Below, piece by piece: positions 270 through 62,977 of a stretch of 64,000 nucleotides of DNA. Made by a program: the position numbers and the translations under genes. Source of the stretch: Escherichia phage KKP 3954. A model generated the notes under the pieces. The model saw nothing but the letters and a program-made list of their open reading frames with translations. It did no database searches and had not been told where the DNA came from. Each line of letters begins with the position of its first letter. Position 1 is the first letter of the stretch. Location: the sequence record OR067838.1, one strand, 5' to 3'.

Positions 270-281
270 GAGGAGATTAGT

Positions 282-503
282 ATGGGTGTTTTTGCAGGTA
301 TTGTTGCAGTGGTAAGCTTTTTTGTTATTGCTTTTATGCTTAGTTTGATTCCAGCTTGGTTATTGTTGCTGGCTTACAACTATGTTGCTGAAGTTATGGG
401 TCATGCAGATATCACTGTCCCAGTAACCTTCTGGACCGTGGTTTGTGTTTCGTTTATTCTGGCTGTATTACGAGGAATCTTTTCCTCTCATTCAACAAAA
501 TAA
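282..503 (+). CDS. small hydrophobic membrane protein (2-3 predicted TM helices)
   Basis: ORF track; GAGGAG RBS 8 nt upstream of ATG; strongly hydrophobic sequence. Confidence 0.45.
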   Translation: MGVFAGIVAVVSFFVIAFMLSLIPAWLLLLAYNYVAEVMGHADITVPVTFWTVVCVSFILAVLRGIFSSHSTK

Positions 504-506
504 GTG

Positions 507-534
507 TTGACATAGTTCTTAAAAAGAGTAAGAT
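507..534 (+). promoter_or_regulatory. sigma70-like promoter (TTGACA -35, 16-nt spacer, TAAGAT -10) upstream of TerC gene
   Basis: TTGACA at 507-512 and TAAGAT at 529-534 read directly from sequence. Confidence 0.45.
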
Positions 535-584
535 ATATCACATGAAGCGGGGAATAGTTCCCCGCAAAGAGAAAGGAGAAAATA

Positions 585-7589: not shown

Positions 7590-8192
7590 ATGACTGATAA
7601 AATTTCCCTGAAAAAAGGCTCTAGCGAAAAAATTTCCCTGAAGAAAGTTGCTCCGGCTCTGAAAGAACTGCGCCTGGAATTCTCTTGGAAATCTGATTCT
7701 AAACTGGATCTGGATGTAAGTGCACTGGTTTGTCGTCATAATGCCGCTGGCAATCCTGAAATGCTGTCTGCACGTCATCTGGTTTGCTATGCTAACAAGT
7801 TTGATCCTGAACGTTCTACCTTCGCTGGTGACGATGTTCGTGATGGAACTGGCAGCATGGAGCAGATTGATATTACTCTGGCTAAAATCTCTCCTGATGC
7901 ACAAGAGATTGCCTTTGTTCTGACCATTGATGATGATACAGGTCTGAAACGTTTTGGTCATGCTTCTGAAGGTATGCTTAAAATCTTCGACTCCGAGCGC
8001 AATGTGGAAATTCTGGATTTTGACTTCCTGGCTCCTGAAGTAGCTGGCAACACAATCTGCCACGTGGCTTCCTTGGTTCGTGAAGATGGGGAATGGAAAC
8101 TGAAAGCATATGGTGTAGGTAAAGCTGGTCTGGATATTTGCGATGTGGTGATGGCCTTCGGTGGTAAAAAAGAATGGTATGAATGTCCATAA
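7590..8192 (+). CDS. terD: TerD family protein
   Basis: Aligns by eye along its length to E. coli TerD: duplicated ISLKK N-terminus, GDDVRDGTGSMEQIDITL matching the GDNRTGEGDGDDE calcium-binding region, GEWKLKAYGVGKAGL near C-terminus. Confidence 0.85.
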   Translation: MTDKISLKKGSSEKISLKKVAPALKELRLEFSWKSDSKLDLDVSALVCRHNAAGNPEMLSARHLVCYANKFDPERSTFAGDDVRDGTGSMEQIDITLAKISPDAQEIAFVLTIDDDTGLKRFGHASEGMLKIFDSERNVEILDFDFLAPEVAGNTICHVASLVREDGEWKLKAYGVGKAGLDICDVVMAFGGKKEWYECP

Positions 8193-8291: not shown

Positions 8292-8813
8292 TTGCTGATA
8301 AAAAACTTTGTAACAGTTGCGTTACTATCCTTAACTGCTTTTACATTTACACCTGTTGTGGCGAAAGCCGAAGCTGCAAACGTAAAAACCGCTAAAGTAG
8401 TTCACAAATATACAAAGCAATATAATGATAAAATTCTATTAGCTTGTGCAATTTACGCAGAAGGTCGCGGTCTGGGTAAAAAGGGAATGAATGCCGTTGG
8501 GAATGTGGTAATCAATAGAAGAAATGATGCCTACTTTCCTAACACAGTCAGAGGAGTCTTGTTCCAGAAAGGGCAATTCTCATATGCGAAAACTTTTAAC
8601 GTAACAGAGAAAGATAAGTGGCAGGAAGCAAAAGCAATAGCGGAGCGTTTACTTTATTTAGAGAAACATTTTCCTGAATTGCGGTCTGTTTTAGATGTTA
8701 CTAAAGGTGCTCTATACTTCAAGAAGCGGAATATAAAGACACACTGGGAGCGTGATATGCGTCTTGTTTATCGAGATAAAGTGCATGGTTTCTATCTACC
8801 AAAGGGGAGTTAA
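8292..8813 (+). CDS. secreted cell wall hydrolase, SleB-like (Hydrolase_2) domain with N-terminal signal peptide; candidate endolysin
   Basis: Signal peptide then AIYAEGRG...VINRR...FQKGQFS, typical of SleB-type hydrolases; TTG start 7 nt after AAGGAGG. Confidence 0.6.
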   Translation: MLIKNFVTVALLSLTAFTFTPVVAKAEAANVKTAKVVHKYTKQYNDKILLACAIYAEGRGLGKKGMNAVGNVVINRRNDAYFPNTVRGVLFQKGQFSYAKTFNVTEKDKWQEAKAIAERLLYLEKHFPELRSVLDVTKGALYFKKRNIKTHWERDMRLVYRDKVHGFYLPKGS

Positions 8814-21251: not shown

Positions 21252-21280
21252 AAGGGAACCCGCAAAGGTTCCCTTTTTTA
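21252..21280. terminator. bidirectional rho-independent terminator between convergent plus and minus gene blocks
   Basis: AAGGGAACC-CGCAAA-GGTTCCCTT flanked by A-tract and T-tract. Confidence 0.65.
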
Positions 21281-23956
21281 TTAGTCGTAATATTTCAAAC
21301 CTGTAATGAACTTCGATCCCCAATCCGCACTTGCGGCGGTGAACGTCAACATCCAAGTTGTAGCTGTACCAGTGAAGACCTCTCGTTGCACAATACCATC
21401 AGTGTGGTAAATGTCCACGCCAGTATGTCCATTCTTAGGAATAGTGAAGGTAACAGCACTGGTAGTGTCTCGTGCATAAGAACAAACAAATGGTGTCCCC
21501 GCCCAAACTGGATTTGTCATATCCCCCATCTCAAGCTGTGGAACCCAAGCAATAAGACCTGCCATACCATCTCCTGCGAAAGTGTCTGATCCACTTGCAT
21601 TCAAAGCTATAATCTCATAGGTTATAGATGCTTGTTTGGCAACTGTCACTTTGTGTAGAATTACACGATACCAACCATTCCCCATATCGATTATGTTTGC
21701 ATCTGCACCTGTAAATGTTCCAGCTACAAGATCATAAGTCCCTTCGTTAATCTCATCTCCTGAAGTCAATTTGAGTTTCACTTTAGTGATCCCATCTGGC
21801 TTCAAGAATACGGATGCCGCCCAGTGCTTACCTGCTGTAATATCAGAAGCTGTATTCACTGCTGATAAAATATGTTGTCCTGAAGTTGTAGAAGGTGTTA
21901 ACTTGTAAGTGTTAGCCGTAGTTCCAACCGGAGAGTTGATTGTTGATGCTGTGACTGTCAAGTTCGTCTTCAACCACGGGGAAGCTGTTGTCAAGTTATT
22001 GTTGATAAAGATATGTATACGGTTGGCTGCTACAACACGTCTACCTTGTGGAGTTGTACCAACATATTCTAAAGGTGCTACGGGAGCAGAACTCTCTGTA
22101 GGTACAAGGATATCTCCAGAAGCCCTGGCATAACGGTTACTCCTGTTGACCTTTACATCCGCCGGAATAGTTTCTTGCGTCAAATCATAGTCCATCACAA
22201 TCACCACAGCATTCACTGCGAGATAAGAACTATCTTCGGCAGTTACCACACCTTGATAAGTTGCTCTACAACCGATACGACAATCCCCATCAGCAACCGC
22301 TGTAATAACGCCTGTAACGGGGTCAACTGTTGCTACCGTAGGATCATTAGAGAAATACTCAACAACCATACCAGGTAAGCTTGCTGCCCCTGTTGGCGTT
22401 ATTTCTGCTACCATTGTTTGTGTTGTTCCTACATCCATCGCAGATAAGCTAGGAGTGTAAACGCTCAATGTTGAAGCATATCCTCCAGAGGTATCTGATA
22501 AAGTTGTTCCTTCAGCGTTTAAGGCTGTCATACCTGCATCAAAACCACCTTCTGCATGGAAAGTCATTAAACCAGTAGATGATATTGTCATGTTTGCAGG
22601 GGCAGAAGAAGTGTATTTAATATTGAAAAGTTTACCTCCTTCTGGGCTAACAGAATGTGTCAACTGTTTAGTTCCACCTACAATACAAATTCCTAAAGAA
22701 TCTGTAGTTAAGCCAGTTGCCAGAACATCACCCGTAATCACGGAGCTTGCTATTGGTGTGAATTTATTATAGTTTAGACCACTATTGAACAGATACGAAG
22801 CTTTCCCATCTTTCCAAATACCGGAATAATACATATCTCCATTATAAACGAAAAAGGTTCCTTGATAACCTAATTGGTTAGTAACATCCATATTCAGCGT
22901 ATGAACGCTTGTGAGCTTGTTTATATCCCAAGAACCCACTCCTTCAGGTTTAACTGGTTTTCCCACTTGGAGTGGATCTCCGCTCGCAGAATCATACCCC
23001 AAACCTAAGTTTGCAGTGTAGTTCTTACCAATAGCCCACAAGGAATTATTGATCCCAACGAAAAAAGAGTGGCGGCTTGGTGGAAACTTCCATGTTGAGA
23101 AACCTGCTGCAAAGGTATCCAGTTTAGTGTAGGTTGTTTCTGTATTAGATCTAACATATAAGTAGTTTACCATACCCGTGCCACCGGAGGTATCTCCTAC
23201 AACTATTGTCTGGGAAACTGTATTGATGTAATCTTTGACATACACTGTTTCAGTAGCGGATATCTTGGCATTGACAAAAGCTGTTGTTGTGTTATTATTA
23301 CCTGCTAAACCTTTACTAGCTCCACAAACACGCAAGGTTCCCACATTGTTGACATAAGAGCATTGGTTGTAACCTGCATCAAAAGCAACTGCTGCACTCG
23401 TTATTTGACGAGGAGTAGAAACTTCGTTAGTAGTACTTGCACCTAAACTGCCTACTGTGTTTTGACCCGATCCATAAAGAACGCCACTATTCATTAACCA
23501 GAGAGTGTTATTATATCCTCCCTTAACCTCTTTAAGATTGGCTAAAGAGATAGTCCCCGTTATTACAGATGGAAAGCTGGTCCAAGTAGTTACACATGCA
23601 TCCATACCACCTGCTGCTATAGATCCTACCAACCCTGCTGTCAATCCTGAATATTGCCATCCCCCACTATTAGTTTTAATAATAAAACAACGATCTGCGG
23701 TAAACACATCCGCTACTACAGTAGAAGCTAAGTAGAAATTATTGAATCGTGCACTACGAGTTCCATCTGCAATCTCACCAAAAAGGTTTGCACCTTGAGT
23801 AAACAATCTACCATCGTTAAGCAAAATTGCTAAACTACTGTTAGAATTACCAGCATTGTCTGGGTAATCTAAAGTGATTACTTTTTTAACAATACCCGCT
23901 GGCAGAGGAACGACACCAGTACTGGTCATAATAGTAAATATTGGAATTGGAAACAT
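21281..23956 (-). CDS. tail fiber/tailspike-like protein (receptor-binding candidate)
   Basis: 891 aa, Gly/Thr/Ser/Asn-rich; GGAGGG RBS; last gene of tail block. Confidence 0.55.
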   Translation of the reverse strand: MFPIPIFTIMTSTGVVPLPAGIVKKVITLDYPDNAGNSNSSLAILLNDGRLFTQGANLFGEIADGTRSARFNNFYLASTVVADVFTADRCFIIKTNSGGWQYSGLTAGLVGSIAAGGMDACVTTWTSFPSVITGTISLANLKEVKGGYNNTLWLMNSGVLYGSGQNTVGSLGASTTNEVSTPRQITSAAVAFDAGYNQCSYVNNVGTLRVCGASKGLAGNNNTTTAFVNAKISATETVYVKDYINTVSQTIVVGDTSGGTGMVNYLYVRSNTETTYTKLDTFAAGFSTWKFPPSRHSFFVGINNSLWAIGKNYTANLGLGYDSASGDPLQVGKPVKPEGVGSWDINKLTSVHTLNMDVTNQLGYQGTFFVYNGDMYYSGIWKDGKASYLFNSGLNYNKFTPIASSVITGDVLATGLTTDSLGICIVGGTKQLTHSVSPEGGKLFNIKYTSSAPANMTISSTGLMTFHAEGGFDAGMTALNAEGTTLSDTSGGYASTLSVYTPSLSAMDVGTTQTMVAEITPTGAASLPGMVVEYFSNDPTVATVDPVTGVITAVADGDCRIGCRATYQGVVTAEDSSYLAVNAVVIVMDYDLTQETIPADVKVNRSNRYARASGDILVPTESSAPVAPLEYVGTTPQGRRVVAANRIHIFINNNLTTASPWLKTNLTVTASTINSPVGTTANTYKLTPSTTSGQHILSAVNTASDITAGKHWAASVFLKPDGITKVKLKLTSGDEINEGTYDLVAGTFTGADANIIDMGNGWYRVILHKVTVAKQASITYEIIALNASGSDTFAGDGMAGLIAWVPQLEMGDMTNPVWAGTPFVCSYARDTTSAVTFTIPKNGHTGVDIYHTDGIVQREVFTGTATTWMLTFTAASADWGSKFITGLKYYD

Positions 23957-29487: not shown

Positions 29488-30033
29488 TTATTCCGTCGGT
29501 AATGTAGGCCAATCTATAGCGTAAGGATAGTTTTTTTGAAGCGGAACACGGTTTAGTTTAACCACATAAACTTGAAGATTTTTAAGATAAGTTAATTCAT
29601 CTTCAGTAGCCATTTCTAAATCTTTAGCATATTGTAAAGGTGTTATAAGTGCTACCGCTGTTTCTTGTAAAGAGCGAATCTTTGCACTAGCTTGTGTCAT
29701 CAACTCTTCACGGGAATACTCTTTATCCTTAAGAGTTAAGGTTTCTAAATCCAAAACCTTGTTCCTAATATCCTCAAAAGTATCTATATTAAAGTCTACT
29801 TGTGCTATAGAAAGATCTTCAGGGCAAAGTAGTGTAGGATCAGTATTCCAAAACACAATACGATTTTGATCATCAAAAACGACTTTCATTTTGTCGTTAT
29901 TGAATTCTGTGCTACGTAAATCATACCAATCGTAACCTTGATCACAACGAAGGAAAAGAATGTTCTCTGCTTCTACCAATTCTTTTAGTTCAGGATCTTC
30001 AGGAATATACTTTTTAAAATTTGTAAATATCAT
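29488..30033 (-). CDS. hypothetical protein (tail fiber-associated)
   Basis: ORF track; position between fiber genes. Confidence 0.45.
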   Translation of the reverse strand: MIFTNFKKYIPEDPELKELVEAENILFLRCDQGYDWYDLRSTEFNNDKMKVVFDDQNRIVFWNTDPTLLCPEDLSIAQVDFNIDTFEDIRNKVLDLETLTLKDKEYSREELMTQASAKIRSLQETAVALITPLQYAKDLEMATEDELTYLKNLQVYVVKLNRVPLQKNYPYAIDWPTLPTE

Positions 30034-31095
30034 TTAGCCTCCAATATCATACCAGTTTCCGTTAACGTTGCGCTGGAGGCGTTTGAAGTAAACCCCACCA
30101 ATGTTATCCGCAGAACTACGACCTGTTTCCTGAACAATAATACCAGAAAGAACATAACCAGAAGAACAGATATAAGTCCAAGAAACTTCGTTCCCTGGTG
30201 GATAATACACACCTTGGCTAGTATAACGAATATCTCTTACAAAGGTTCCATTAGCATAGTTGTAGTTATTTGTAATCTGATTTTGATGATTACTTTCTAC
30301 ATTGTTTATACGGGAAGAGAGGTTGCTGTTAACACTATTCAGGTTGTTTTGAACAGTGTTAATATTCGTCTGCAATGTGTTCTGAAGAGAAGTCAAACGA
30401 GAATTCAGATAATCTAAGCGAACCAAGGCATTTCCGTTAGAAGTGTCTTGTCCATTGTTTGATCTTGGATTATCTATTAGAACATAACCTGCATCATATA
30501 AACGAACACCTGCGGCTACACTACCTGTGCTAGGATTTCTACGATAAATATAAAGCTGACCTCCACTTTGGTATTCGGCAGAAATCTCACCATTAGTCTG
30601 TCCTGCAAAGTTCTTGAAAAACAGGGTTGCAGGATCTGTTGTGGAAATACCATTAACATAAACATCACCACCATAAATAGCACCACCTGCATCACGTTTT
30701 ACCAACACATTTGGTGTTACTATTGAACTAGTAGCATCTGTAATGTTTGCCGATAAGTGATTATGACTGTTGTCTTGAACTTGGATAGATAAAGTAACTT
30801 CTTTATTACCATTCCAAGTAGCTTCACCAGTAGCATCACCTGCCATTGTAATCTTAGTTCCAACTAAAGGCAAGTAAGTATCAGGTAAAGTTGGAAGAAA
30901 GTCATCCACCAAATAGCGAATCCATAAACCGATATTATTAAGAATCCAGTTCATTTCTTCGCAAGTCATGATTTGACCATAATCCATACCAACTGTGCGG
31001 ATGGTTTCTTTAGGTCTAATTTTGTTTGTGTTTAAAGTTCCTGGGAGCGTTACAGTTTGTGTAGCCCAGTCAGGATAATATATTGGCTTCGCCAT
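30034..31095 (-). CDS. tail fiber protein (Asn-rich coiled-coil segment)
   Basis: ORF track; NNLNSVNSNLSSRINNVESN repeat typical of fiber shafts. Confidence 0.5.
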   Translation of the reverse strand: MAKPIYYPDWATQTVTLPGTLNTNKIRPKETIRTVGMDYGQIMTCEEMNWILNNIGLWIRYLVDDFLPTLPDTYLPLVGTKITMAGDATGEATWNGNKEVTLSIQVQDNSHNHLSANITDATSSIVTPNVLVKRDAGGAIYGGDVYVNGISTTDPATLFFKNFAGQTNGEISAEYQSGGQLYIYRRNPSTGSVAAGVRLYDAGYVLIDNPRSNNGQDTSNGNALVRLDYLNSRLTSLQNTLQTNINTVQNNLNSVNSNLSSRINNVESNHQNQITNNYNYANGTFVRDIRYTSQGVYYPPGNEVSWTYICSSGYVLSGIIVQETGRSSADNIGGVYFKRLQRNVNGNWYDIGG

Positions 31096-31736: not shown

Positions 31737-33224
31737 TTACACTCCATACTCGTAAGAAATGTTATCAAGGTCAAAAGAAGGGACAACATTATAAGCAGGA
31801 ACTATATTATTCTCTGTATATTTACTGTCATCCTCAGTATTAAGTTTAACATAAACACGAAGAGAAGTCAAGCGTCCAAAAGCAAGTGCTGCATAAATAA
31901 CACCTTTGATTTGATCGTTCGTTACTGAAGAACCTAATTCAAAGTAAGCTTGCAGGTTTTGTAAAGCTTCTACAATGTTTTGTTTTTCTGTTCCACTTAA
32001 AGTTGTTCCGTTGACAGTTTGATAAACAAGTTTTACGGAATACATAGCAGAGGCTCCAGGAGAGAAACGAATAATTTCTTGTCCTCCGTCTTCTGTTGTA
32101 ACTGTTATGTTCGTTGTTCCATGTGTCAAAGTGTTGATTGGTTTAGTTTTATAAATAACCTCGGCAACTTCTTCAGCACTTCCTCCATAAACTATAGTCT
32201 GGAAAGTCATAGCTGGAGCATGTTCTTGATCATGCAATGTAGGGTTATCATAAATCTTCACCTTGGTAACACCATCGGTAAGCAACAGTGCTTTCACAAT
32301 AGCTGCACGTGTCCCTGCATTAGCTTCGTCTACGTTGTCATTGAAACGAGAACGGAATTCTGCATCTGTCTCAACGTCTCGACCAGGAGAAAATGAATAG
32401 AAGTTACCACTATCAAGATAACCTGTGAAGGTAGAAGAGATACCTGTAATGGACTCTACACCCACCGGATTATATCCTTTCTCTGCTGCAACTACCGGAA
32501 TTTCACTCCATTTGGTTCCAACTGGAACACTAGCATAAAATTTGATAGGAGTTACTAGTCCCACTGGAGTATCATTGGTTAAAGAAGTAAAACCAATTGA
32601 CAAGTTACCAGAATCAGAAAATACAAGACTACGATCAGCCTCTGTTAAGTTTGCCTTGATAAAAGTTTCAAGATCGGCTATAAATGTAGAAGAACCAGGT
32701 GCAAGTGTTTTACTGTTTAGTCCTCCATCTATCGCACTTTGTGCATAAAAGGTAATATTTGGAACACCTGTAGCAGTTGCATTAGCACGAGAAATTTGAT
32801 AAGCTGCAATCTTAGCATTCAACATAGTTGGTGTGCTAACATAGTAGTTCATATCGCTATCAGAGTTGAAGTAAATATCTGTGCCTAACTCGTAAGTCCA
32901 AGCTGCTTTGTTATTACTTTTAACATATGCATAACCTGTGCTTGCTGCTGCCCCTGCTCGATAGAAACCACGTTTAGAAAAGATTTCGTCAAGATAAATA
33001 CCTTCTGCACCATCCAGTGTTTGAGTATTATAAACCCCTTGCATACCTTCCCACAATGTGTAATCTGTGTATGCAATTATTCTAAACAGTTGTCCGATCA
33101 CAGTATCTTCCGAAGTGGCTGCATCTGCACCAAATGTGTTTTTTACTGCTGTCATGTAGTTGTTTAAAACATCGTCAAAAGTCGGGATTACAAATCCCGC
33201 ATCTGTCAAACCATATTCGTCCAT
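31737..33224 (-). CDS. putative baseplate wedge (J-like) protein
   Basis: ORF track; size and position. Confidence 0.4.
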   Translation of the reverse strand: MDEYGLTDAGFVIPTFDDVLNNYMTAVKNTFGADAATSEDTVIGQLFRIIAYTDYTLWEGMQGVYNTQTLDGAEGIYLDEIFSKRGFYRAGAAASTGYAYVKSNNKAAWTYELGTDIYFNSDSDMNYYVSTPTMLNAKIAAYQISRANATATGVPNITFYAQSAIDGGLNSKTLAPGSSTFIADLETFIKANLTEADRSLVFSDSGNLSIGFTSLTNDTPVGLVTPIKFYASVPVGTKWSEIPVVAAEKGYNPVGVESITGISSTFTGYLDSGNFYSFSPGRDVETDAEFRSRFNDNVDEANAGTRAAIVKALLLTDGVTKVKIYDNPTLHDQEHAPAMTFQTIVYGGSAEEVAEVIYKTKPINTLTHGTTNITVTTEDGGQEIIRFSPGASAMYSVKLVYQTVNGTTLSGTEKQNIVEALQNLQAYFELGSSVTNDQIKGVIYAALAFGRLTSLRVYVKLNTEDDSKYTENNIVPAYNVVPSFDLDNISYEYGV

Positions 33225-33466
33225 TAGTCATCCTCTTTGGTAGATTGTGATCTGCCCCAACGTAAATCAATAAGATTTTTCATGAGGCGAGAAGGGGTTA
33301 TCATGAAAACAAAAGCCCAACCCATCCATTCAGGAATTTCTTTTTCTATTCCTAAAAAGATAAACATGCCTGTCATAACCGACATGCCTACAGCGTTCCA
33401 GACTTTAGTAGAACTGACTTTATTATCAGGATATATACAGAACATACCTATTAAAAATTTTCTCAT
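33224..33466 (-). CDS. small membrane protein (2 predicted TM helices)
   Basis: ORF track; hydrophobic. Confidence 0.4.
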   Translation of the reverse strand: MRKFLIGMFCIYPDNKVSSTKVWNAVGMSVMTGMFIFLGIEKEIPEWMGWAFVFMITPSRLMKNLIDLRWGRSQSTKEDD

Positions 33467-33768
33467 AGTGCGTTCTCATTACTTTTTAAATCACGAGATA
33501 CAGCTAATTCCCCAAGGTCTACAGAACCCGCTGAATGCACAAATACAGCAGCACTAAGACTAATGGCAGTAGTACCTGGGGCAATATCAGCAGGTAGGGA
33601 ATACGCCCTTTGCGTCTCCTTGTCATAGATAACCTTATACCCACCCAAATCCACACCAACTGAGAAATAAACAACTTCTGATTGCTTAACTCCGAAGTGA
33701 CGGGCTATAGCTTGCTTGTTAGTTTGTTTTGCTACCGAGCCTGTTGGCTGAGTAAACATTTCATTCAT
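33463..33768 (-). CDS. hypothetical protein
   Basis: ORF track. Confidence 0.45.
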   Translation of the reverse strand: MNEMFTQPTGSVAKQTNKQAIARHFGVKQSEVVYFSVGVDLGGYKVIYDKETQRAYSLPADIAPGTTAISLSAAVFVHSAGSVDLGELAVSRDLKSNENAL

Positions 33769-33820
33769 GGATTAATCCTCGTGTTTTAGTTTTAAATGCC
33801 CCGCCGAAGCGGGGTTTTGT

Positions 33821-36217
33821 TTAGTCGGTTATGCTTGATATCGCTGCATACTGGTTCACGGATACAGGAGTTGCGTCTATTCTAGTGTTTCTCGATGATG
33901 ACCTAACCATCAGAAACACCATAGCGCGTCCAGATCCGTCAACATACTTGAGTATCCCTGTTGTATTTGCGGATATTTGTTGTAGGAATATCTGTCCTTG
34001 CGTTGTCGATGTAATAACAGCCGGAGTAGACACCACGGCTGAACCGATTATAAATACACTTATTTTTCCGGATAATTGATACAAAAGCGCCGCAGTTCCA
34101 GAAAACGTACCGGATGCCAATGTAACATTTATATCCCCCGACAACCGGATATACGCGCTTGGTGATGCCGTTATTGTTACGGATGAAGCGTTTATACGAA
34201 ACCCTTTATAACTGGTTACGACTCTGGTAAGTGAGACAGACCCTGTTACATTTATAACGAAGTCGCCGCGAAAACCACCTTTTTGTCTAACGATGTTTAC
34301 AATTTCTATCGCCCGCTCCAGAGATGCTACAGCCCTACCAGAAACAAATCCGGAGTTCTCATCGTTACCAGTTGCAGGGTTAACAAAGATTTCTCTCGTG
34401 AAATCCATCCCTAAATAGTTTACAGCAGACCAGTTACCAATACTTCCATAATCAGTAATAGCAGGGCTTACATTCTCTACGCGCAATGGTGCATTAGTGA
34501 ATGTTCCACCAACCATCCCATTAGAGAACCCTCCGACTGGGGGCATACCACGAGCAATAACTTTACGCTCAGTACCATCTTGACCACAGAAGAAGAACCC
34601 ATAGGAAAGACAGGTATAGTTAATTTGCGACCAGTTATCCAAATCTATATAACTGTTAGCTATCACAAAATTGTGACGCATAATCATATTGCCGCCTACA
34701 TCTTCTACGTGCGGCTTTCGTAAGTGAATGTCTGTATCGTTAAATGCGAACGCCTGCCTCCACCATTCAACGACAGGTTCGTCGATAACAAAATCACGAA
34801 CTGTATCGCAAGTTATACCAGTATTCTGATTTTTTCCTTCAGCAGTCCATGCCGTTGCTGGATAGACTAATTCTGGATTGTCGGCGTTAGCACCAACTCG
34901 TGCAACATAAGGATTGGTTATACGTAGCCCGGCGTTTGCCTTATAAAGATGGATACCCTGACGCATAGCCAGCACTTTAGGGGAACGGAAATCAGCACCC
35001 CATGACCATCTAAAATACATTCCTAACATGGGTGCTGATACCAGATTACCGCCACGTTCTGTGATTCCTATACTGGTTTTTGTACCTTTACATCCAGGGG
35101 ACATTGAGAAGTTAAGACCTATCTTGACACCGCCAGAACATGCTACTGATAGGTCGAATAGGAATCCATCTGACATCGTGATATAACCGTTCACATCGGT
35201 AATATCGTTGTCAGGCGTGCCGATTAAAGCGCCAGTTTTCCTCACATAAGAAATACCTGACAACTCAAAAACAACTGGTTCTGTAGCAGCGGTGTTTAAA
35301 TCCGTCGGAGCATAATAAAAACCAACTGGTATTTGTCTGTTGAAATAGGTCTGCGCACCAACCTGATCGTAATGTACATGACGCATAAGCAGGAGCGGAA
35401 CAGCAGACTCTACACGAGAAGTAAACACCACATGAACTGGTTTAAGGCTATATTTATATGCCTCCAAAGCTGTAGCGTTGGCGTAAGATGATGCCATACC
35501 CGCTGTGATATAAGAGTTCAGAGCGTTGATTTTTTCTGTGCCTGTTCCGGCGAAATCATCAACGTAAAGCTCATTAATCAGTTTCGCATACAATCCATTC
35601 ACGATTGGCATCGGCGTGACTTCGGAAACAATCTCCCATCTGGATCCACCAGTTGACACTTTCTGACCCAGAATAAGAGTTGCATCAGCAGCCATAGCCT
35701 GGATATTACTAAAGCCGTGCACATAACGATCTCCACCCTCACTAGAGATGTTTTCTTTAAGAGATGCATCGCCAACACTAACCCACGCTCCTAATTTAAC
35801 CTCACCTGTGCTATCTGGAGTTGAACCAGTTGGAACTATTTTTGGTAGGTCACTATCCCAAGTGTAGCACTGACCACCTGCAATATACCAAACAGCATCA
35901 GTAGATGTGGATACAGTAGCCCCCTCTTCAAAACTACCATCAACAAGTGTTAACCCCGCTTCAGCAAGACTACGACGCCACTGTTCACGATCATTAAGAA
36001 GATTGTTATTCAACTCTTCCTGAACAGTATTACCATTTGAGGATTGTATTAAATCTGCTCCATCTGTATCTTTCAACTGGGTGGCTAAAACCACCCCAGT
36101 GTCAGTAAGAAAGTTGGAAACTGTGCTTTTAACAGTTTTATCAGGTTGATCTAAAACCAGGTAATCTGAACCATTAACTTTTGATGTTTCGGGTAAATTA
36201 GTAATTGTAGTTGACAT
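33821..36217 (-). CDS. tailspike/tail fiber protein
   Basis: 798 aa; GGAG RBS; Gly/Ser/Thr-rich body consistent with a beta-structure enzyme domain. Confidence 0.55.
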   Translation of the reverse strand: MSTTITNLPETSKVNGSDYLVLDQPDKTVKSTVSNFLTDTGVVLATQLKDTDGADLIQSSNGNTVQEELNNNLLNDREQWRRSLAEAGLTLVDGSFEEGATVSTSTDAVWYIAGGQCYTWDSDLPKIVPTGSTPDSTGEVKLGAWVSVGDASLKENISSEGGDRYVHGFSNIQAMAADATLILGQKVSTGGSRWEIVSEVTPMPIVNGLYAKLINELYVDDFAGTGTEKINALNSYITAGMASSYANATALEAYKYSLKPVHVVFTSRVESAVPLLLMRHVHYDQVGAQTYFNRQIPVGFYYAPTDLNTAATEPVVFELSGISYVRKTGALIGTPDNDITDVNGYITMSDGFLFDLSVACSGGVKIGLNFSMSPGCKGTKTSIGITERGGNLVSAPMLGMYFRWSWGADFRSPKVLAMRQGIHLYKANAGLRITNPYVARVGANADNPELVYPATAWTAEGKNQNTGITCDTVRDFVIDEPVVEWWRQAFAFNDTDIHLRKPHVEDVGGNMIMRHNFVIANSYIDLDNWSQINYTCLSYGFFFCGQDGTERKVIARGMPPVGGFSNGMVGGTFTNAPLRVENVSPAITDYGSIGNWSAVNYLGMDFTREIFVNPATGNDENSGFVSGRAVASLERAIEIVNIVRQKGGFRGDFVINVTGSVSLTRVVTSYKGFRINASSVTITASPSAYIRLSGDINVTLASGTFSGTAALLYQLSGKISVFIIGSAVVSTPAVITSTTQGQIFLQQISANTTGILKYVDGSGRAMVFLMVRSSSRNTRIDATPVSVNQYAAISSITD

Positions 36218-57475: not shown

Positions 57476-59551
57476 TTATCTTTTACGGACACTATACGGT
57501 TGGTGAAATCCGCTGTTCATTCTACTGTATCCTGTAGGAGCATTTGTTGTTGTAGGAATAGCTACTGCCTTGAAAGTATTCTCTTTTGACAGAGTATTGA
57601 AACAAGAAGCAGCAGCATCGGGAATGTCATCTTTAATAGTGGCTGTAGATCTTTCACCATTGAAAGATTCCAATTCTTTATAAAAGTGGGTTAGAGTTTC
57701 CACATTAGGGAAAGAATCTTCAACAATATAAACAAAACCATTTTGACACGCACTACTAAAAGGCATAAAACGCTGAAGCTTTTTCTTGTTGCCTGGCATA
57801 GCATCTGGTTTAACAACAAAACCTTCTAGAATAAGTTTCTTTGCAGACTCTGTATATTCTATTGTTCCAGCACCAGATGGGTCTTTAGGAAGCACTACTG
57901 TAACTTCTGGTCCATCAATCTTACATTGATTAAGAATCAGATTATCCCTTTCCCCAGGTAGTCTTCTAAACCTTCCGAAAATTTTACTTTTCTCATCCAC
58001 AGCGTCATAGTCATAGTCACCAAAGATGTAGATATTACCATCCTGATCTTTACCCATTTTGACAGACGTTGTATAGTCTGGATAACGATAAGTTTCTGTA
58101 GGAACTGAAACAGCTTTATCCCAGGCTCGCATTAGTTTAAGATTGTTAGGAACATCTTTATAAGATATTTTATGTAACCATTCACGTTGAAAGAAAGATT
58201 CTTTCTGAATACGTGCAAACCAACAACCATCCAGAAGCTGTGCTCTTTTAATTGCTGTTTGTGATTTAAGCTGTGCTAAGTAATTAGGGTTAAGCCTAAT
58301 CAGTTCTGGGTTATCAAATATTGTCCCACCAATAAATACGAAAGTTTGTGGTTCAATAACAACTGTCTCCCCTGTATTAGGGTTTTCCATGAAACAGTTT
58401 TCTGGATATTTTTCTTTCAGTTCTTCAGGTGTGTCAGCAAAAACAGGTTCATCGTTAACAATGATGAAATATTTTTGTTTACCACACATATCTTCTCTAG
58501 GATAACCACCCTCATCAAGATAAGGTAACACCCAATTCAAAACCCAACTATCTGCATCGGGGTTACATGTGCACAACATGAAGCTTGTTTCTGATTCTGA
58601 ACGCATACGTCCCAGAAGATAGAGCATTTCATATTGCGTGAAGTGGGTTAACTCGTCAAAACCTACCATTGAATACTGTATACCCTGATGGTTTGTTTCT
58701 GCTGTTACGTTATCATTTTCCAAATGGTCGAATTTGAGGGTTCCACCACCAGTGGCTTCAAAAATGATATCCATTGTACTTTCTTTTACGTGCGGTTGTA
58801 AAGGAAGATACAAACGTTTTGCTTCTGTAAACAGACCACCTGGTTTACGGTGAGCAGTGGTGTTCTTACGAAAAAGTATTCCACCAAACAAAGGATCTTT
58901 GTAGGCGTATTTTAAAGCTTTCAGCAATAGCAGACGAGACTTGCCGCTATTCCCAGTAACGAAGCAGTGATCGCCACGTCTAAAGACAATATAGCTGCTT
59001 GGAGTCTCAAAACAATATTTCTTATCATCTGTTGAAATAACCTCGTGTATTTTTAAGTAAGTGCTCTTTTTACCAGGTATGTTAAAAGGAACACGTTTAC
59101 CGAATGGATTTTCTACATAACCTTGAAGGGGTTTTCCTATTTGCTGTAATGCAATAAGATCTCCTACAAGAATCTCGAAATGTTTCTTTGATTTCTTTTT
59201 CTTATAGAATACAAAACGGTGTTCCATACTAAGTTCTTGGAACAATCCTACACCATTTGTTATTCTGTATAGGTTATCTCCATTTAAATCGTATTCTACA
59301 AAATAAGGTGTTACCAATTCTAAACGCTTATTCTTAGGATTGTATTGGTAAATATCCTCTCCTGAATATTCACTAATCTGTCTCCAACCATCTTTTGTAA
59401 GATATTCCGTTTCAGCAGAAACACATCCAGCGGCACCACCATAAATCATAACTTCTGGCATTAAATCCATTGCAAGAGTCTGTTTACCTGGTTGAGCCTT
59501 TACTTCAATATCTACTCCAGCTAAACTACCTGCTGCCTTTTTCTTTGCCAC
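57476..59551 (-). CDS. terminase large subunit
   Basis: 691 aa; P-loop-like VTGNSGKS; position before portal. Confidence 0.75.
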   Translation of the reverse strand: MAKKKAAGSLAGVDIEVKAQPGKQTLAMDLMPEVMIYGGAAGCVSAETEYLTKDGWRQISEYSGEDIYQYNPKNKRLELVTPYFVEYDLNGDNLYRITNGVGLFQELSMEHRFVFYKKKKSKKHFEILVGDLIALQQIGKPLQGYVENPFGKRVPFNIPGKKSTYLKIHEVISTDDKKYCFETPSSYIVFRRGDHCFVTGNSGKSRLLLLKALKYAYKDPLFGGILFRKNTTAHRKPGGLFTEAKRLYLPLQPHVKESTMDIIFEATGGGTLKFDHLENDNVTAETNHQGIQYSMVGFDELTHFTQYEMLYLLGRMRSESETSFMLCTCNPDADSWVLNWVLPYLDEGGYPREDMCGKQKYFIIVNDEPVFADTPEELKEKYPENCFMENPNTGETVVIEPQTFVFIGGTIFDNPELIRLNPNYLAQLKSQTAIKRAQLLDGCWFARIQKESFFQREWLHKISYKDVPNNLKLMRAWDKAVSVPTETYRYPDYTTSVKMGKDQDGNIYIFGDYDYDAVDEKSKIFGRFRRLPGERDNLILNQCKIDGPEVTVVLPKDPSGAGTIEYTESAKKLILEGFVVKPDAMPGNKKKLQRFMPFSSACQNGFVYIVEDSFPNVETLTHFYKELESFNGERSTATIKDDIPDAAASCFNTLSKENTFKAVAIPTTTNAPTGYSRMNSGFHQPYSVRKR

Positions 59552-59560
59552 ATTTCCTCC

Positions 59561-59905
59561 TTATTCAGCAATAATACCTTTTTCTTGCAGTGTTTTAATA
59601 TATGTTTGTAAACCTAAAACCTTTCGTCTATCTTGCTCCCAAAGAGCGTTGTTTTGAGTTTGGTTGTTAACAACTTCAGATCTACTGACCCCTTTTGCAA
59701 TTTGATTTTTAGTGTATGGCACAGGTGTCGATACTTTATCCATCAAGTCTGAATCTGGACCTTTAACCTTTTCTATGGCTACAGCCTTACACTCATCAAT
59801 AAGAACTGGGGAAACTTTTGTTGATGATGAACAACCCGTCATCATTAGGGGCAAAGCAAGACATACTGCCAGAATTAGTTTTTGCATAATTCGTTGTATC
59901 CTCAT
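59561..59905 (-). CDS. outer-membrane spanin (Rz1-like lipoprotein), overlapping the 3' end of the i-spanin gene
   Basis: Signal peptide with lipobox LMMTGC; about 110-nt out-of-frame overlap with 59796..60206. Confidence 0.55.
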   Translation of the reverse strand: MRIQRIMQKLILAVCLALPLMMTGCSSSTKVSPVLIDECKAVAIEKVKGPDSDLMDKVSTPVPYTKNQIAKGVSRSEVVNNQTQNNALWEQDRRKVLGLQTYIKTLQEKGIIAE

Positions 59906-60206
59906 TGATCGTTTGTTTCTTCTTCTCTAAATCTGCTTTTAATTGTGCATTGTTTTTAGACAAGTTGTTTATTTGAGTATTTAATAATGCTCTTTCTTCA
60001 TCGGCTCTTTTTTGAAGAACATCAAAATCCTGTTTTGCTTTTGCTTGGGCTGCTTGATATAATTGCGTTTGATAGGCAACACCATCTTTGTAGCCAGACT
60101 CACGTATCTTGTTATAAGCAAACATTCCGGTAAGAATAAGAACAACAATTAAAACAAAACCTAATACAGTTTTAGTCTTTAGATTCATTATCTTCTGCTT
60201 CCTCAT
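59796..60206 (-). CDS. inner-membrane spanin (Rz-like): N-terminal TM helix plus coiled coil
   Basis: TM segment TVLGFVLIVVLILTGMFAY then charged helical region. Confidence 0.55.
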   Translation of the reverse strand: MRKQKIMNLKTKTVLGFVLIVVLILTGMFAYNKIRESGYKDGVAYQTQLYQAAQAKAKQDFDVLQKRADEERALLNTQINNLSKNNAQLKADLEKKKQTINEDTTNYAKTNSGSMSCFAPNDDGLFIINKSFPSSY

Positions 60207-60238
60207 AAAATTTTATTTTAGGAAGAGAAGGGGCATTA

Positions 60239-60409
60239 TTAACTATCTTCTTCACTTCCATTGGTTGAGCCTCCACTAGGATCTCTTCCCACGTCTTCTC
60301 TGTCATCATAAAGTTCTTCCTCCAAGTTCCAAGCCCGTGTGTAATCATTCTTTTTATCTTTATGATAAGAAGAACGGTTAAAATCATTTTTAACTACAAA
60401 ATTGCGCAT
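60239..60409 (-). CDS. small acidic hypothetical protein (56 aa; different frame from track ORF 60172..60387)
   Basis: ATG with GAGGAGG RBS 7 nt upstream. Confidence 0.4.
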   Translation of the reverse strand: MRNFVVKNDFNRSSYHKDKKNDYTRAWNLEEELYDDREDVGRDPSGGSTNGSEEDS

Positions 60410-60465
60410 ATTTTATCCTCCTCATATCTGATCTTATCACAAAAGGATATACAATTGCAAGCATT

Positions 60466-60497
60466 AAAAATAAAAAAGCCCCTAACCTTTCGGAGAG
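60466..60497 (-). terminator. hairpin followed by T-tract on minus strand
   Basis: CCCCT...AGGGG stem then CTTTTTTATTTTT on minus strand. Confidence 0.4.
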
Positions 60498-60549
60498 GGG
60501 TGTTAAAAATAACAAGGAGGAGGGCCAAAGCCCCAAGAGAGGAGAGGGA

Positions 60550-60846
60550 TTAGATTACGATCTTTTTAGGAACGTCATCTGTATTCTGCACGGCAGGGGT
60601 TTCTTCTTCCATAGCTTCATAATGTTCTTCTAACCATTCTTCTACTTGCTCTTTAATAGCTTTAGCTGCTTGGAAGCGGAGAGGTTTTGCTGCATCCTTA
60701 TCATTAACAAGTTCAACAATATACCGCATAGCTTCTAAATAATGCTCTGCAAATAATTCTTTTACACTTGCTTGCGCCGCATCCATTGCGTAAATCTGTT
60801 GCATTTCGGCTGTTGGTCTTCCACGACCACGTTTTAGTTTAGGCAT
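60550..60846 (-). CDS. small DNA-binding-like protein (basic N-terminus); possible terminase small subunit or regulator
   Basis: AGGAGGATT RBS; MPKLKRGRGRPT N-terminus. Confidence 0.45.
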   Translation of the reverse strand: MPKLKRGRGRPTAEMQQIYAMDAAQASVKELFAEHYLEAMRYIVELVNDKDAAKPLRFQAAKAIKEQVEEWLEEHYEAMEEETPAVQNTDDVPKKIVI

Positions 60847-61053: not shown

Positions 61054-61132
61054 TGGAGGCGGGAATTGGATTTGAACCAATGATCTCCAGCATATGAAAC
61101 TGGCGAGGACGACCAGACTCCTCTATCCCGCT
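61054..61132 (-). tRNA. tRNA-Met (anticodon CAT), initiator-like
   Basis: Manual fold: T-arm ATTGG-TTCAAAT-CCAAT, anticodon loop TTCATAT; 3' CCA encoded; ends approximate by 1-2 nt. Confidence 0.6.
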
Positions 61133-61138
61133 ATCATG

Positions 61139-61208
61139 TATCCCGTGCTGGATTCGAACCAGCGTCACAATAAATTGTGGATCTCTTATCCTGTAAGTCT
61201 AACGGGAA
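61139..61208 (-). tRNA. tRNA-like gene, aberrant (anticodon arm has only a 4-nt loop); possible pseudogene
   Basis: Good T-arm GCTGG-TTCGAAT-CCAGC and 6-bp acceptor stem, but anticodon region folds as CACAA-TTTA-TTGTG. Confidence 0.4.
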
Positions 61209-61210
61209 AC

Positions 61211-61284
61211 TGGTTGTTTCGACAAGAATCGAACTTGTGTCTCACGATTATCAGTCGTGGGTTCTACCATTGAACTACGAAACA
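61211..61284 (-). tRNA. tRNA-Ile (anticodon GAT)
   Basis: Manual cloverleaf: acceptor TGTTTCG/CGAAACA, loop CTGATAA, T-arm ACAAG-TTCGATT-CTTGT, CCA encoded. Confidence 0.7.
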
Positions 61285-61290
61285 TTTAAT

Positions 61291-61367
61291 TGGTCGGAAT
61301 TGCAGGATTCGAACCTGCGACCCTACGCTCCCAAAGCGTATGCTCTACCAAACTGAGCTAAATTCCG
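61291..61367 (-). tRNA. tRNA-Pro (anticodon TGG)
   Basis: Manual cloverleaf: acceptor CGGAATT/AATTCCG, loop TTTGGGA, T-arm GCAGG-TTCGAAT-CCTGC. Confidence 0.7.
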
Positions 61368-61372
61368 TTATA

Positions 61373-61448
61373 TGGCTGGTCTGTCTGGATTTGAACCAAA
61401 CCTACGACAGTCAAAGTGTCGTGTGCTACCGGACTACACTACAAACCA
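61373..61448 (-). tRNA. tRNA-Gln (anticodon TTG)
   Basis: Manual cloverleaf: anticodon stem CGACA/TGTCG, loop CTTTGAC. Confidence 0.6.
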
Positions 61449-61546
61449 ATAAATCATTTAATGAAGGGCAACCAGAAGAAGTGTGAGAGAAGGAGAAAAC
61501 CATGAGTAAAAGAGAAAGTTTTCTGGCAACCCTTTATTAAATAATT

Positions 61547-61620
61547 TGGAGCGTTCTACGAGGATCGAACTCGTGCCGCCGACTTGGAAGGACGGAATGC
61601 TACCGCTACACCAAGAACGC
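61547..61620 (-). tRNA. tRNA-Gly (anticodon TCC)
   Basis: Manual cloverleaf: acceptor GCGTTCT/AGAACGC, loop CTTCCAA, discriminator U. Confidence 0.6.
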
Positions 61621-61631
61621 CCTATATATTT

Positions 61632-61661
61632 ACTATACTACATTTTACTATTTGTTGTCAA
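61632..61661 (-). promoter_or_regulatory. sigma70-like promoter on minus strand (TTGACA, 18-nt spacer, TATAGT) for the downstream tRNA genes
   Basis: Hexamers read from reverse complement just upstream of tRNA-Gly. Confidence 0.5.
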
Positions 61662-61933
61662 GACTTTTATTGATTGGGACAGTGACGAGTATCCCGTTGG
61701 GTGACTAGCCCTACGTTCGGTAAGCTAACTTAAAATAATACAAAACCAAAGTCAAATATTATTCTTCGTTGCTGTCGATGGGAGAGCCGCTTCTCATTTT
61801 GCCCCATCCAACCCTACTCCGGTCAAGTTTCGGGTGACTCTTTTTGTGATCAACACAATACTAAGAACACTGTCTTTCGAGCAGACCTTGTGCACAGGAA
61901 CGACGATCAATCACAATGCTCTTAATGTTGTGT

Positions 61934-62008
61934 TGGTGCTCCCACACTGAATCGAACAGAGATCCACGGATTACAAAACCGTTGTAATAGCCATTATACT
62001 ATAGGAGC
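61934..62008 (-). tRNA. tRNA-Thr (anticodon TGT)
   Basis: Manual cloverleaf: acceptor GCTCCTA/TGGGAGC, loop TTTGTAA. Confidence 0.6.
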
Positions 62009-62014
62009 AATGCT

Positions 62015-62091
62015 GGGACTCGGCAGGATTCGATACCTGCAATTCCAGAAGCCTATTGGCGACTGGGGGTTTACCTTAACTCTACAAGTCC
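62015..62091 (-). tRNA. tRNA-like gene, anticodon unresolved (irregular anticodon arm, 8-nt T-loop)
   Basis: 7-bp acceptor stem GGACTTG/CGAGTCC and T-arm GCAGG-TATCGAAT-CCTGC, but no canonical 5-bp/7-nt anticodon arm. Confidence 0.4.
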
Positions 62092-62098
62092 ATAATTC

Positions 62099-62184
62099 TG
62101 GCGATGAGTATAGGATTCGAACCTATATTGTTCTTTCGAACACGGATTAACAGTCCGCCGCTTAAACCGTTCAGCCAACTCATC
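62099..62184 (-). tRNA. type-II (long variable arm) tRNA with Asn anticodon GTT
   Basis: Perfect 7-bp acceptor GATGAGT/ACTCATC, discriminator G, CCA encoded; anticodon arm CGGACTGTTAATCCG; variable arm GTTC-GAAA-GAAC. Confidence 0.6.
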
Positions 62185-62190
62185 TTAATT

Positions 62191-62278
62191 TGGTGGTGAG
62201 TGATGGAGTCGAACCACCCGAATCGCAATGATAACAGATTTACAGTCTGCCCCGCTACCCCTACGGAATTAACTCACC
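62191..62278 (-). tRNA. tRNA-Tyr (anticodon GTA), type II
   Basis: Anticodon arm GCAGA-CTGTAAA-TCTGT; discriminator A; CCA encoded. Confidence 0.65.
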
Positions 62279-62409
62279 TAAATACTAATATTTAAATTCT
62301 TTTTAAAATAGCCAGTGTTCGCACCACTAACTATGAGTTATCGGTAAGATGGTGGGGGGCTATCTTCCGAAAGTTTACTCTATTAAAGTAAGCTACATTA
62401 AAAAGAACT

Positions 62410-62495
62410 TGGCGGTAGATGTAGGACTCGAACCTACACGCCGTTTCCGACTACAGTTTAGCAAACTGTCGTGGCTACCATTTCACCAATCTACC
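62410..62495 (-). tRNA. tRNA-Ser (anticodon GCT), type II
   Basis: Anticodon arm ACAGT-TTGCTAA-ACTGT; long variable arm; discriminator G. Confidence 0.7.
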
Positions 62496-62500
62496 TAATC

Positions 62501-62591
62501 TGGCGGAAGGAGGGAGAGTCGAACTCCCAAGGCTCTTTCAAGCTCGGCGGTTTTCAAGACCGTTTTCGTCGCCACATCGATTTGCCCTTCC
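62501..62591 (-). tRNA. tRNA-Ser (anticodon TGA), type II
   Basis: Anticodon loop CTTGAAA; T-arm GGGAG-TTCGACT-CTCCC; long variable arm. Confidence 0.65.
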
Positions 62592-62599
62592 ATACTTAT

Positions 62600-62629
62600 A
62601 ATCTAACATAAAATAATGATTGTTGTCAA
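62600..62629 (-). promoter_or_regulatory. possible sigma70-like promoter on minus strand (TTGACA; -10 TAGATT) upstream of tRNA-Ser
   Basis: Hexamers read from reverse complement. Confidence 0.35.
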
Positions 62630-62825
62630 TACTTTTTTAAAACATTTTACCATGAATGGTGACTCCACCAACCCCCGTTCTCCACGAACGGTGCTCTTCG
62701 AGCATTTATGTCTTCTAATATAACCGTGGCCTTTGTTTATAATGTCTGACATACTTGCCTCATTCTCTGCCACCATGATCAGTAGTGGGTTCAAATCACT
62801 TGAGCTAATTCATGTTAAAATGTTC

Positions 62826-62900
62826 TGGTGTCTTTACAAGGAATCGAACCTTGACTAAGAGTTTAGAAGACTCCTGTGCTATCCATTACACCATAAAGAC
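62826..62900 (-). tRNA. tRNA-Arg (anticodon TCT)
   Basis: Acceptor GTCTTTA/TAAAGAC; loop CTTCTAA; T-arm CAAGG-TTCGATT-CCTTG. Confidence 0.65.
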
Positions 62901-62902
62901 GT

Positions 62903-62977
62903 TGGTGGCCCTGGCTGGTTTCGATCCAGCTACCTATCGGTTATGAGCCGACAGCTCTCCCATTGAGCTACAGGGCC
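62903..62977 (-). tRNA. tRNA with anticodon CAT, Ile2 (lysidine)-type by resemblance to E. coli ileX; alternatively elongator Met
   Basis: Acceptor GGCCCTG/CAGGGCC; loop CTCATAA; 5' and 3' ends resemble E. coli tRNA-Ile2. Confidence 0.6.

Follow-up and report, generated by a model that had tools for sequence, protein, structure and literature searches.

How does an overlapping pair of lysis-like genes come to lie beside a terminase gene with no holin or endolysin adjoining it, and which enzyme would open the peptidoglycan ahead of their products? The question is raised by a locus on the minus strand of Escherichia phage KKP 3954 (sequence record OR067838.1), within a stretch of 64,000 nucleotides that was analysed as a whole and is here called the window. 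A first-pass annotation of this DNA had read two open reading frames (ORFs) as an Rz/Rz1-like overlapping spanin pair in a genome with dispersed lysis genes, and had suggested that the endolysin may be secreted rather than released by a holin. Our analysis indicates that the two ORFs very probably encode the inner-membrane spanin (i-spanin) and the outer-membrane lipoprotein spanin (o-spanin) of a Phapecoctavirus, that is, a two-component system of the overlapped type, in a phage whose lysis genes are scattered and whose main endolysin is most likely a T4 e-type lysozyme. The window is only 43% of the genome, and genes outside it were judged from the reference phage ESCO5.

The putative spanin pair

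The upstream gene of the pair specifies a product with the anatomy of an inner-membrane spanin. It matches phrog_4297 ('Rz-like spanin') with an expectation value (E) of 2e-35, and its ESCO5 orthologue is annotated with the same term. The longer version of the protein starts at the first ATG (60206), and the RefSeq orthologue in ESCO5 uses the second (60188). A single N-terminal hydrophobic segment reaches a Kyte-Doolittle 19-residue maximum of 2.46, and such a segment is likewise found in four relatives. AlphaFold2, run without an alignment, gives residues 3–104 as one continuous helix, with block values of the predicted local distance difference test (pLDDT) of 87–97 over residues 11–100, followed by an unstructured tail of about 26 residues. 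Of this predicted helix, which sets out from the membrane segment, roughly 70 residues lie beyond that segment. Together these features correspond to the single N-terminal transmembrane helix and largely helical periplasmic domain expected of the inner-membrane partner of a two-component spanin. In the alignment with the relatives 21 positions are invariant, including one cysteine that lies in the conserved C-terminal tail YAKTxSGSMSCFxPNDDGL.

The downstream gene has the properties of a lipoprotein partner. Its first ATG is at 59905, and the relatives begin at the equivalent of the second, at 59887. The product matches phrog_1267 ('Rz-like spanin') at E 8.7e-21, its ESCO5 orthologue is annotated 'o-spanin', and it carries a signal peptidase II lipobox, L-M-M-T-G-C, which reads LMMTGC, LMITGC or LMVSGC in the four relatives (phi92, phiWec190, phi1_175008 and KP13-16). 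The lipobox cysteine is invariant across the five diverged phages. The residue at +2 is serine in the window and S, A, T or N across the five; the aspartate that would act as an inner-membrane retention signal is absent from this position, and sorting of the o-spanin to the outer membrane is therefore implied. The product is 38–73% identical among the five phages, with 29 invariant positions that include the lipobox cysteine and a second cysteine, and AlphaFold2 predicts a C-terminal helix at residues 69–102 (pLDDT 80–88). Hydropathy and the invariant lipobox cysteine bear out the membrane-protein and lipoprotein characters that had been assigned to the two products.

The DNA shared by the two genes carries a further sign that both are real. 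They overlap on one strand by 110 nucleotides, or by 92 if the likelier starts are used, with the o-spanin in the +1 frame relative to the i-spanin, an arrangement among those expected of two-component spanins, whose genes share a strand and lie side by side, overlapping or one within the other. Within the overlap fall the final 30 codons and the stop codon of the i-spanin gene together with the opening 30 codons of the o-spanin gene, and one stretch of DNA specifies both the conserved C-terminal tail of the former and the latter's signal peptide and lipobox. When the window was aligned with phi92, phiWec190 and Klebsiella phage phi1_175008, the proportion of invariant columns was 70% in the overlap and 30% and 42% in the two single-coding flanks. 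For third codon positions it was 74% (i-spanin frame) and 57% (o-spanin frame) within the overlap, and 14% and 11% outside it. This pattern shows purifying selection acting on both frames, and the dual-coding signature is the strongest internal evidence for the pair.

The same results bear on the possibility that the lipoprotein ORF arose by chance out of frame and that only the membrane protein is a real gene. Existing annotation lends this some plausibility, since the o-spanin of phi92 is unannotated, the phi92 i-spanin carries the remark 'Bad Prodigal statistics', and many GenBank records give 'hypothetical protein' only. A chance frame is nevertheless hard to reconcile with the 235 nucleotides by which the lipoprotein ORF extends past the i-spanin stop, where there is no competing gene, with the identity and invariant positions of its product across five phages, with the sharp increase of third-position conservation in both frames of the overlap, or with a homologous stand-alone gene in phage SSE121. 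The conservation results already contradict this possibility, and we give it practically no chance of being right.

Comparison of the loci of phi92 (Justusliebigvirus), phiWec190, and Klebsiella phages phi1_175008 and KP13-16 showed the same pair in all four, with an overlap of 80–95 nucleotides, an N-terminal membrane helix and a lipobox. Searches with tblastn found each spanin product in about 133–135 phage records. The pair is conserved across the Stephanstirmvirinae, and its o-spanin is homologous to that of the Vequintavirinae. Spanin annotations ('Rz-like spanin', 'o-spanin', 'i-spanin') already stand in the GenBank records of ESCO5, SF1-1, EF1-1, EmilieFrey and PaulScherrer. Thus the minus-strand ORFs, the lipobox and the out-of-frame overlap described in the first-pass annotation agree with ORF and alignment evidence, and the Rz/Rz1-like arrangement that it recognized is upheld by PHROG matches, protein anatomy, dual-coding constraint and GenBank annotation. 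The positions of the genes and of the other principal features are collected in Table 1.

Table 1. Window positions of the putative spanin genes and of the other principal features, with the evidence for each
Feature	Position	Strand	Evidence or description
i-spanin gene	59796..60188 (130 amino acids) or 59796..60206 (136 amino acids)	-	ORF, phrog_4297, hydropathy, alignment, AlphaFold2, ESCO5 annotation
o-spanin gene	59561..59887 (108 amino acids) or 59561..59905 (114 amino acids)	-	ORF, phrog_1267, lipobox, alignment, ESCO5 annotation, AlphaFold2
Dual-coding overlap	59796..59887	-	invariant columns, third codon positions
Large terminase subunit gene	57476..59551	-	PF03237 (E 7.9e-17), phrog_979 (E 1.7e-216), ESCO5 annotation
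SleB-like cell-wall hydrolase gene	8292..8813	+	PF07486, signal peptide, TTG start, ESCO5 annotation 'endolysin / SleB'
Speculative holin candidate	33224..33466	-	80 amino acids, two hydrophobic segments, charged C-terminus; in baseplate gene block

Genome context beside the terminase

The relationships of the phage are clear from nucleotide identity. Over 4 kilobases around the spanin locus the sequence has 99.2% identity with Escherichia phages vB_EcoM_REC and ESCO5, and 98% with a large number of other phapecoctaviruses; by blastn the whole window corresponds to positions 55171..120054 of ESCO5 (NC_047776.2), in reverse orientation, at 96–99% identity. On this basis the phage is assigned to Phapecoctavirus (phAPEC8/ESCO5-type) in the subfamily Stephanstirmvirinae, with a virulent myovirus genome of about 150 kilobases. 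Because the window is this close to an E. coli phage, its host is taken to be E. coli, in keeping with the Gram-negative host expected for a two-component spanin. Two stretches, 21252..22206 and 33418..36067, gave no blastn alignment to ESCO5; they fall in the tail-fibre/tail-protein region and are probably swapped host-range modules. The window also holds homologues of Ter-type stress-resistance proteins. One is a multi-pass membrane protein of 324 amino acids (585..1559, plus strand), TerC-like according to the ESCO5 annotation, which is adjoined by a 73-amino-acid protein with two transmembrane domains (282..503, plus strand; phrog_16065, of unknown function). The ESCO5 'tellurite resistance' gene (115171..116283 of its record) falls within the window as well.

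The spanin genes do lie beside the terminase gene, as had been noted: the GTG start of the large terminase subunit gene (59551) is 9 nucleotides downstream of the o-spanin stop (59561). Portal, scaffold, capsid and tail genes follow further downstream, so that the spanin genes head a block of packaging and structural genes. Three small ORFs are found upstream on that strand, 60172..60387 (for which an alternative version of 29 amino acids is annotated in ESCO5), 60239..60409 and 60550..60846. None has a hydrophobic segment above the cut-off used (a Kyte-Doolittle 19-residue mean of 1.5) or a match to a lysis family in Pfam or PHROG; two match PHROGs of unknown function only, and the third has no match. 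An array of ten tRNA genes (61054..62977, minus strand; Met twice, Ile, Pro, Gln, Gly, Thr, Asn, Ser and Arg) sits between the early/middle gene block and the spanin–terminase block. With three small non-membrane ORFs, a tRNA array and the terminase as neighbours, the pair stands outside a canonical lysis cassette, and the earlier observation that no holin or endolysin adjoins it holds. A promoter scan around the spanin genes found 5 sites against a mean of 5.9 in shuffled sequence, no better than shuffled. A hydrophobic ORF of 48 amino acids with a TTG start (60390..60536, minus strand), which lies in an intergenic stretch with a stem-loop visible in the sequence, was considered and rejected, the matching DNA of phi92 being read in a different frame.

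The terminase gene itself has an unusual feature. An insertion of 159 amino acids (58949..59425, minus strand) lies exactly between the GGAAG and SGKS of the Walker A motif, which is contiguous (GGAAGSGKS) in the terminase of Seunavirus SSE121. The insertion begins with cysteine, ends with asparagine and is followed by serine, and it contains a TxxH-like motif (SMEH) and a block-A-like motif (CVSAETEYL). From this comparative alignment the pattern fits a mini-intein; intein profiles in Pfam and NCBIfam and sequences in the PDB gave no match to the insertion. Residues 23–134 match phrog_32482, labelled PhoH-like, which may be a sign of a similar insert in a different P-loop protein. In a close relative, phage nepoznato (NC_052658.1, 3556..6597), the terminase match falls in two pieces over about 3 kilobases annotated 'terminase large subunit (x2) | HNH endonuclease', and a homing-endonuclease element, absent from the window, apparently interrupts the gene in that phage.

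Muralytic enzymes and candidate holins

Outside the window, ESCO5 gp080 (29570..30070 of that genome) encodes a leaderless T4 e-type lysozyme of 166 amino acids, which matches Pfam Phage_lysozyme (PF00959) at E 6.6e-11 and shares about 48% identity, across its full length, with the product of gene e of T4-type phages. In tblastn searches gp080 found matches of at least 95% identity in 64 records and of 60–90% in 68 more, numbers that agree with those of phapecoctavirus-level and remoter relatives recovered by the spanin and SleB-like queries; against the 64-kilobase window the same search returned nothing significant. The enzyme escaped the first-pass annotation because its gene lies outside the window. 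The genome type therefore has a canonical endolysin of the cytoplasmic, holin-dependent kind, and a holin-released endolysin is our default reading. The lysozyme gene in ESCO5 and the SleB-like gene are both away from the spanins, consistent with the dispersal of lysis genes that had been proposed.

Within the window, the gene for the SleB-like hydrolase is the only one recognizable as muralytic, as had been claimed for it together with its signal peptide and plus-strand orientation; none of nine tail/baseplate proteins tested has a muralytic Pfam domain. Its product matches Pfam Hydrolase_2 (PF07486; SleB/CwlJ-type) at E 1.3e-17 as well as PHROG endolysin families, and TIGR02869 at E 4.3e-14, a match that falls below the curated cut-off. 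The N-terminus, a hydrophobic segment followed by AKA/EA, is typical of a Sec signal peptide. The protein combines the export signal and muralytic domain of a secreted or signal-arrest-release (SAR) endolysin, and the signal may be either cleavable or a SAR anchor. Both the signal peptide and the TTG start are kept in homologues from UAB_1 (Justusliebigvirus), SSE121 (Seunavirus) and KpS11 (Mydovirus), and a conserved weak start on an exported hydrolase may keep its level low. The gene directly upstream (7590..8192, plus strand) is annotated as hypothetical only, no membrane-protein gene flanks the hydrolase gene in the window, and the surroundings are replication, glycosyltransferase and tellurite-resistance-like genes, not late genes. 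A hydrophobic ORF of 67 amino acids lying out of frame within that upstream gene (7720..7923, plus strand) was considered as an embedded holin and rejected as spurious because the gene in the corresponding position of UAB_1 is not a homologue and contains no such ORF. We regard the SleB-like protein as a candidate second, exported muralytic enzyme, and infer a role for it in lysis.

Could this exported hydrolase instead be the working endolysin, with lysis either independent of a holin or needing depolarization only, in the manner of a SAR endolysin and pinholin, and with the spanins completing the process? The Hydrolase_2 match is strong, the signal-peptide-like segment is conserved in four genera of two subfamilies, and the gene is annotated 'endolysin' in ESCO5 and SF1-1. 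Published work on related phages adds that the protein has a signal peptide, that the CB7 homologue is toxic in E. coli (data not shown in that report), that the CR3 homologue is 'implicated in host lysis', and that in Certrevirus a holin-like gene with two transmembrane domains overlaps the SleB-like gene (PMC7344957). These observations have to be set against the leaderless T4 e orthologue in ESCO5, an established holin-dependent type of endolysin with matches in about 130 related records. SleB-like domains occur also in T5-like and Pakpunavirus phages, and the characterized endolysin of T5 is an enzyme other than the SleB-like one. The position of the gene away from late genes, with no membrane-protein gene flanking it, also speaks against such a role for what is a predicted muralytic enzyme. 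On balance we consider it rather unlikely that the SleB-like protein is the endolysin. The lysozyme of ESCO5 weakens the case for a secreted enzyme, which is not our main reading, and the interpretation offered by the first-pass annotation is in this respect only partly supported. A picture of two hydrolases and no cassette is already present in the literature (PMC12210895; PMC7344957).

The default of a holin-released lysozyme directs attention to the holin. A canonical holin–endolysin pair elsewhere in the genome had been named as the observation that would count against secretion; of such a pair the endolysin half exists (ESCO5 gp080), and the adjacent holin does not, the upstream neighbour gp081 encoding a hydrophilic protein of 49 amino acids. 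Nine small membrane proteins of ESCO5 compared with PHROGs, six of them also with Pfam, included no holin-family match and no T-type holin. The ESCO5 product gp113, labelled 'hol-like chemotaxis', was rejected as a holin, being hydrophilic, acidic and coiled-coil-like with no membrane segment. The most conserved candidate is the small protein listed in Table 1, which has the shape of a holin and is encoded directly upstream of a baseplate wedge gene on the same strand as the spanins. For its ESCO5 orthologue the match is phrog_1322 ('membrane protein', E 2.6e-26), and the protein is found in 371 phage records from the Stephanstirmvirinae, the Vequintavirinae and beyond, always as 'membrane protein' or 'hypothetical protein' and never as holin among the matches listed. 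As a holin it is speculative, a lead and not a finding.

A broader scheme would accommodate both hydrolases. Phages of the Stephanstirmvirinae and Vequintavirinae might deploy two muralytic enzymes by two routes, one a Sec-exported SleB-like enzyme, made from the conserved TTG start and restrained in the periplasm until depolarization, and the other a holin-released T4 e-type lysozyme, with the protein encoded at 33224..33466 as one holin candidate and the spanins timed by co-expression with the packaging genes. We hold this scheme to be unlikely as a whole.

Proposed lysis pathway and known systems

By analogy with the models for lambda Rz/Rz1 and T4 PseT.3/PseT.2 (PMC6139136), the i-spanin would have its anchor in the inner membrane, the lipoprotein in the outer, and their C-terminal regions would bind each other to form a complex that spans the periplasm and is threaded through the peptidoglycan. 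Each partner probably forms homodimers through disulfide bonds at its single periplasmic cysteine, as the same analogy suggests. Degradation of the peptidoglycan would then free the complexes to move and allow fusion of the inner and outer membranes as the last step of lysis. The position of the genes suggests that the spanins are expressed with the late packaging and structural genes. The enzyme that degrades the peptidoglycan would most likely be the leaderless T4 e-type lysozyme, whose gene is outside the window, after release by a holin; the SleB-like hydrolase, as a conserved second, exported muralytic enzyme, may add to this degradation.

Several observations weigh against this account. 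Neither product has detectable homology to its lambda counterpart: BLASTP gave E 7.3 against lambda Rz, only the signal peptide aligned with Rz1, and neither the Pfam Rz family (Phage_lysis) nor the Rz1 family was matched at E up to 1. It is therefore shared architecture, and not homology, on which the transfer of the mechanism depends. In contrast to proline-rich Rz1, the mature o-spanin is long, at about 89 residues, is poor in proline and ends in a predicted helix. Late co-transcription of the spanins with the terminase is suggested by gene position alone, the holin–endolysin half of the pathway is an inference, and the literature searched reports no complementation, localization or lysis phenotype for this spanin family.

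Some of these points, together with the location of the genes outside any lysis cassette, would suit a different function, in which the lipoprotein serves superinfection exclusion or receptor masking in the manner of T5 Llp, the helical protein is an unrelated envelope factor, and the overlap reflects mere packing of genes. Yet a type-II helical protein of the inner membrane paired with an outer-membrane lipoprotein, the two encoded by adjacent or overlapping genes, is the defining signature of spanins and occurs in every relative examined, and PHROG spanin families match both products. The ESCO5 annotation offers no other candidate for the spanin that a phage of a Gram-negative host generally requires. 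Both partners have the periplasmic cysteine in the Stephanstirmvirinae and neither has it in SSE121, which suggests that the two proteins work jointly. A function outside lysis is thus very improbable, and we retain the spanin assignment.

The assignment agrees with what has been published. Kongari et al. (BMC Bioinformatics 19:326, 2018; PMC6139136) list phi92 and phAPEC8 as a two-member spanin family of the 'Overlapped' class in their Tables 3 and 4 (i- and o-spanin), families being defined by at least 40% identity over at least 40% of the periplasmic domain. The window products belong to this family, with identities of 100% (o-spanin) and 97% (i-spanin) to those of phAPEC8 and of 66% and about 51%, respectively, to those of phi92, and they share its overlapped architecture and its position upstream of the large terminase gene. 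From this family the pair differs in nothing of substance; there are a few substitutions, the ESCO5 lipobox, for example, reading LMMMGC in place of LMMTGC. The pair is thus already known, both annotated and published, and its position beside the terminase is normal for this phage group. Beyond correct annotation of a catalogued spanin family whose location is a described trait, its significance is small. These phages are widely used as therapy candidates, and the points of interest that the literature already raises, namely their holin and the respective parts of the two muralytic enzymes in lysis, lie apart from the two genes flagged here.

The closest comparison outside the subfamily is with the Vequintavirinae. 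In rV5, PVP-SE1 and CB7 the spanin genes are likewise next to the large terminase gene without a lysis cassette (PMC7344957). In SSE121 two spanin genes (31..375 and 372..662 of the SSE121 segment examined) lie directly upstream of the terminase gene, and the o-spanin is homologous to that of the window (E 2e-9). The C-terminal tail of the i-spanin in this subfamily resembles that of the window by eye. The Vequintavirinae pairs differ in having a 'separated' architecture, with a stop/start overlap of 4 nucleotides as against 92–110 in the window. Moreover, neither SSE121 spanin has a periplasmic cysteine, whereas the family in the window has one invariant cysteine in each partner. Within this one homologous family a change in gene architecture seems to have gone along with a change in disulfide capacity.

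Resemblance to lambda Rz/Rz1 lies in the N-terminal membrane helix and helical periplasmic domain of the inner-membrane partner, in an outer-membrane lipoprotein encoded in the +1 frame, and in periplasmic cysteines available for homodimer disulfides. The gene for Rz1 is wholly embedded in that for Rz, whereas the lipoprotein gene here continues past the i-spanin stop; mature Rz1 has 40 residues and is proline-rich according to the papers cited above, in contrast to the longer mature lipoprotein of the window; and the lambda genes belong to an S-R-Rz/Rz1 cassette, in place of which the window has a pair adjoining the terminase. A likeness seen by eye between LQTYIKTLQ of the o-spanin and GTQKYINEQ of lambda Rz, as if a single Rz had been frameshifted, was rejected, there being no BLASTP alignment and no Pfam Rz match. 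The spanins of T4 (pseT.3/pseT.2) belong to a different family and have the separated architecture, and T4 is not known to have a signal-peptide SleB-like hydrolase. The likeness to T4 lies in lysis genes scattered over a large virulent myovirus genome and in an endolysin that is an orthologue of T4 e.

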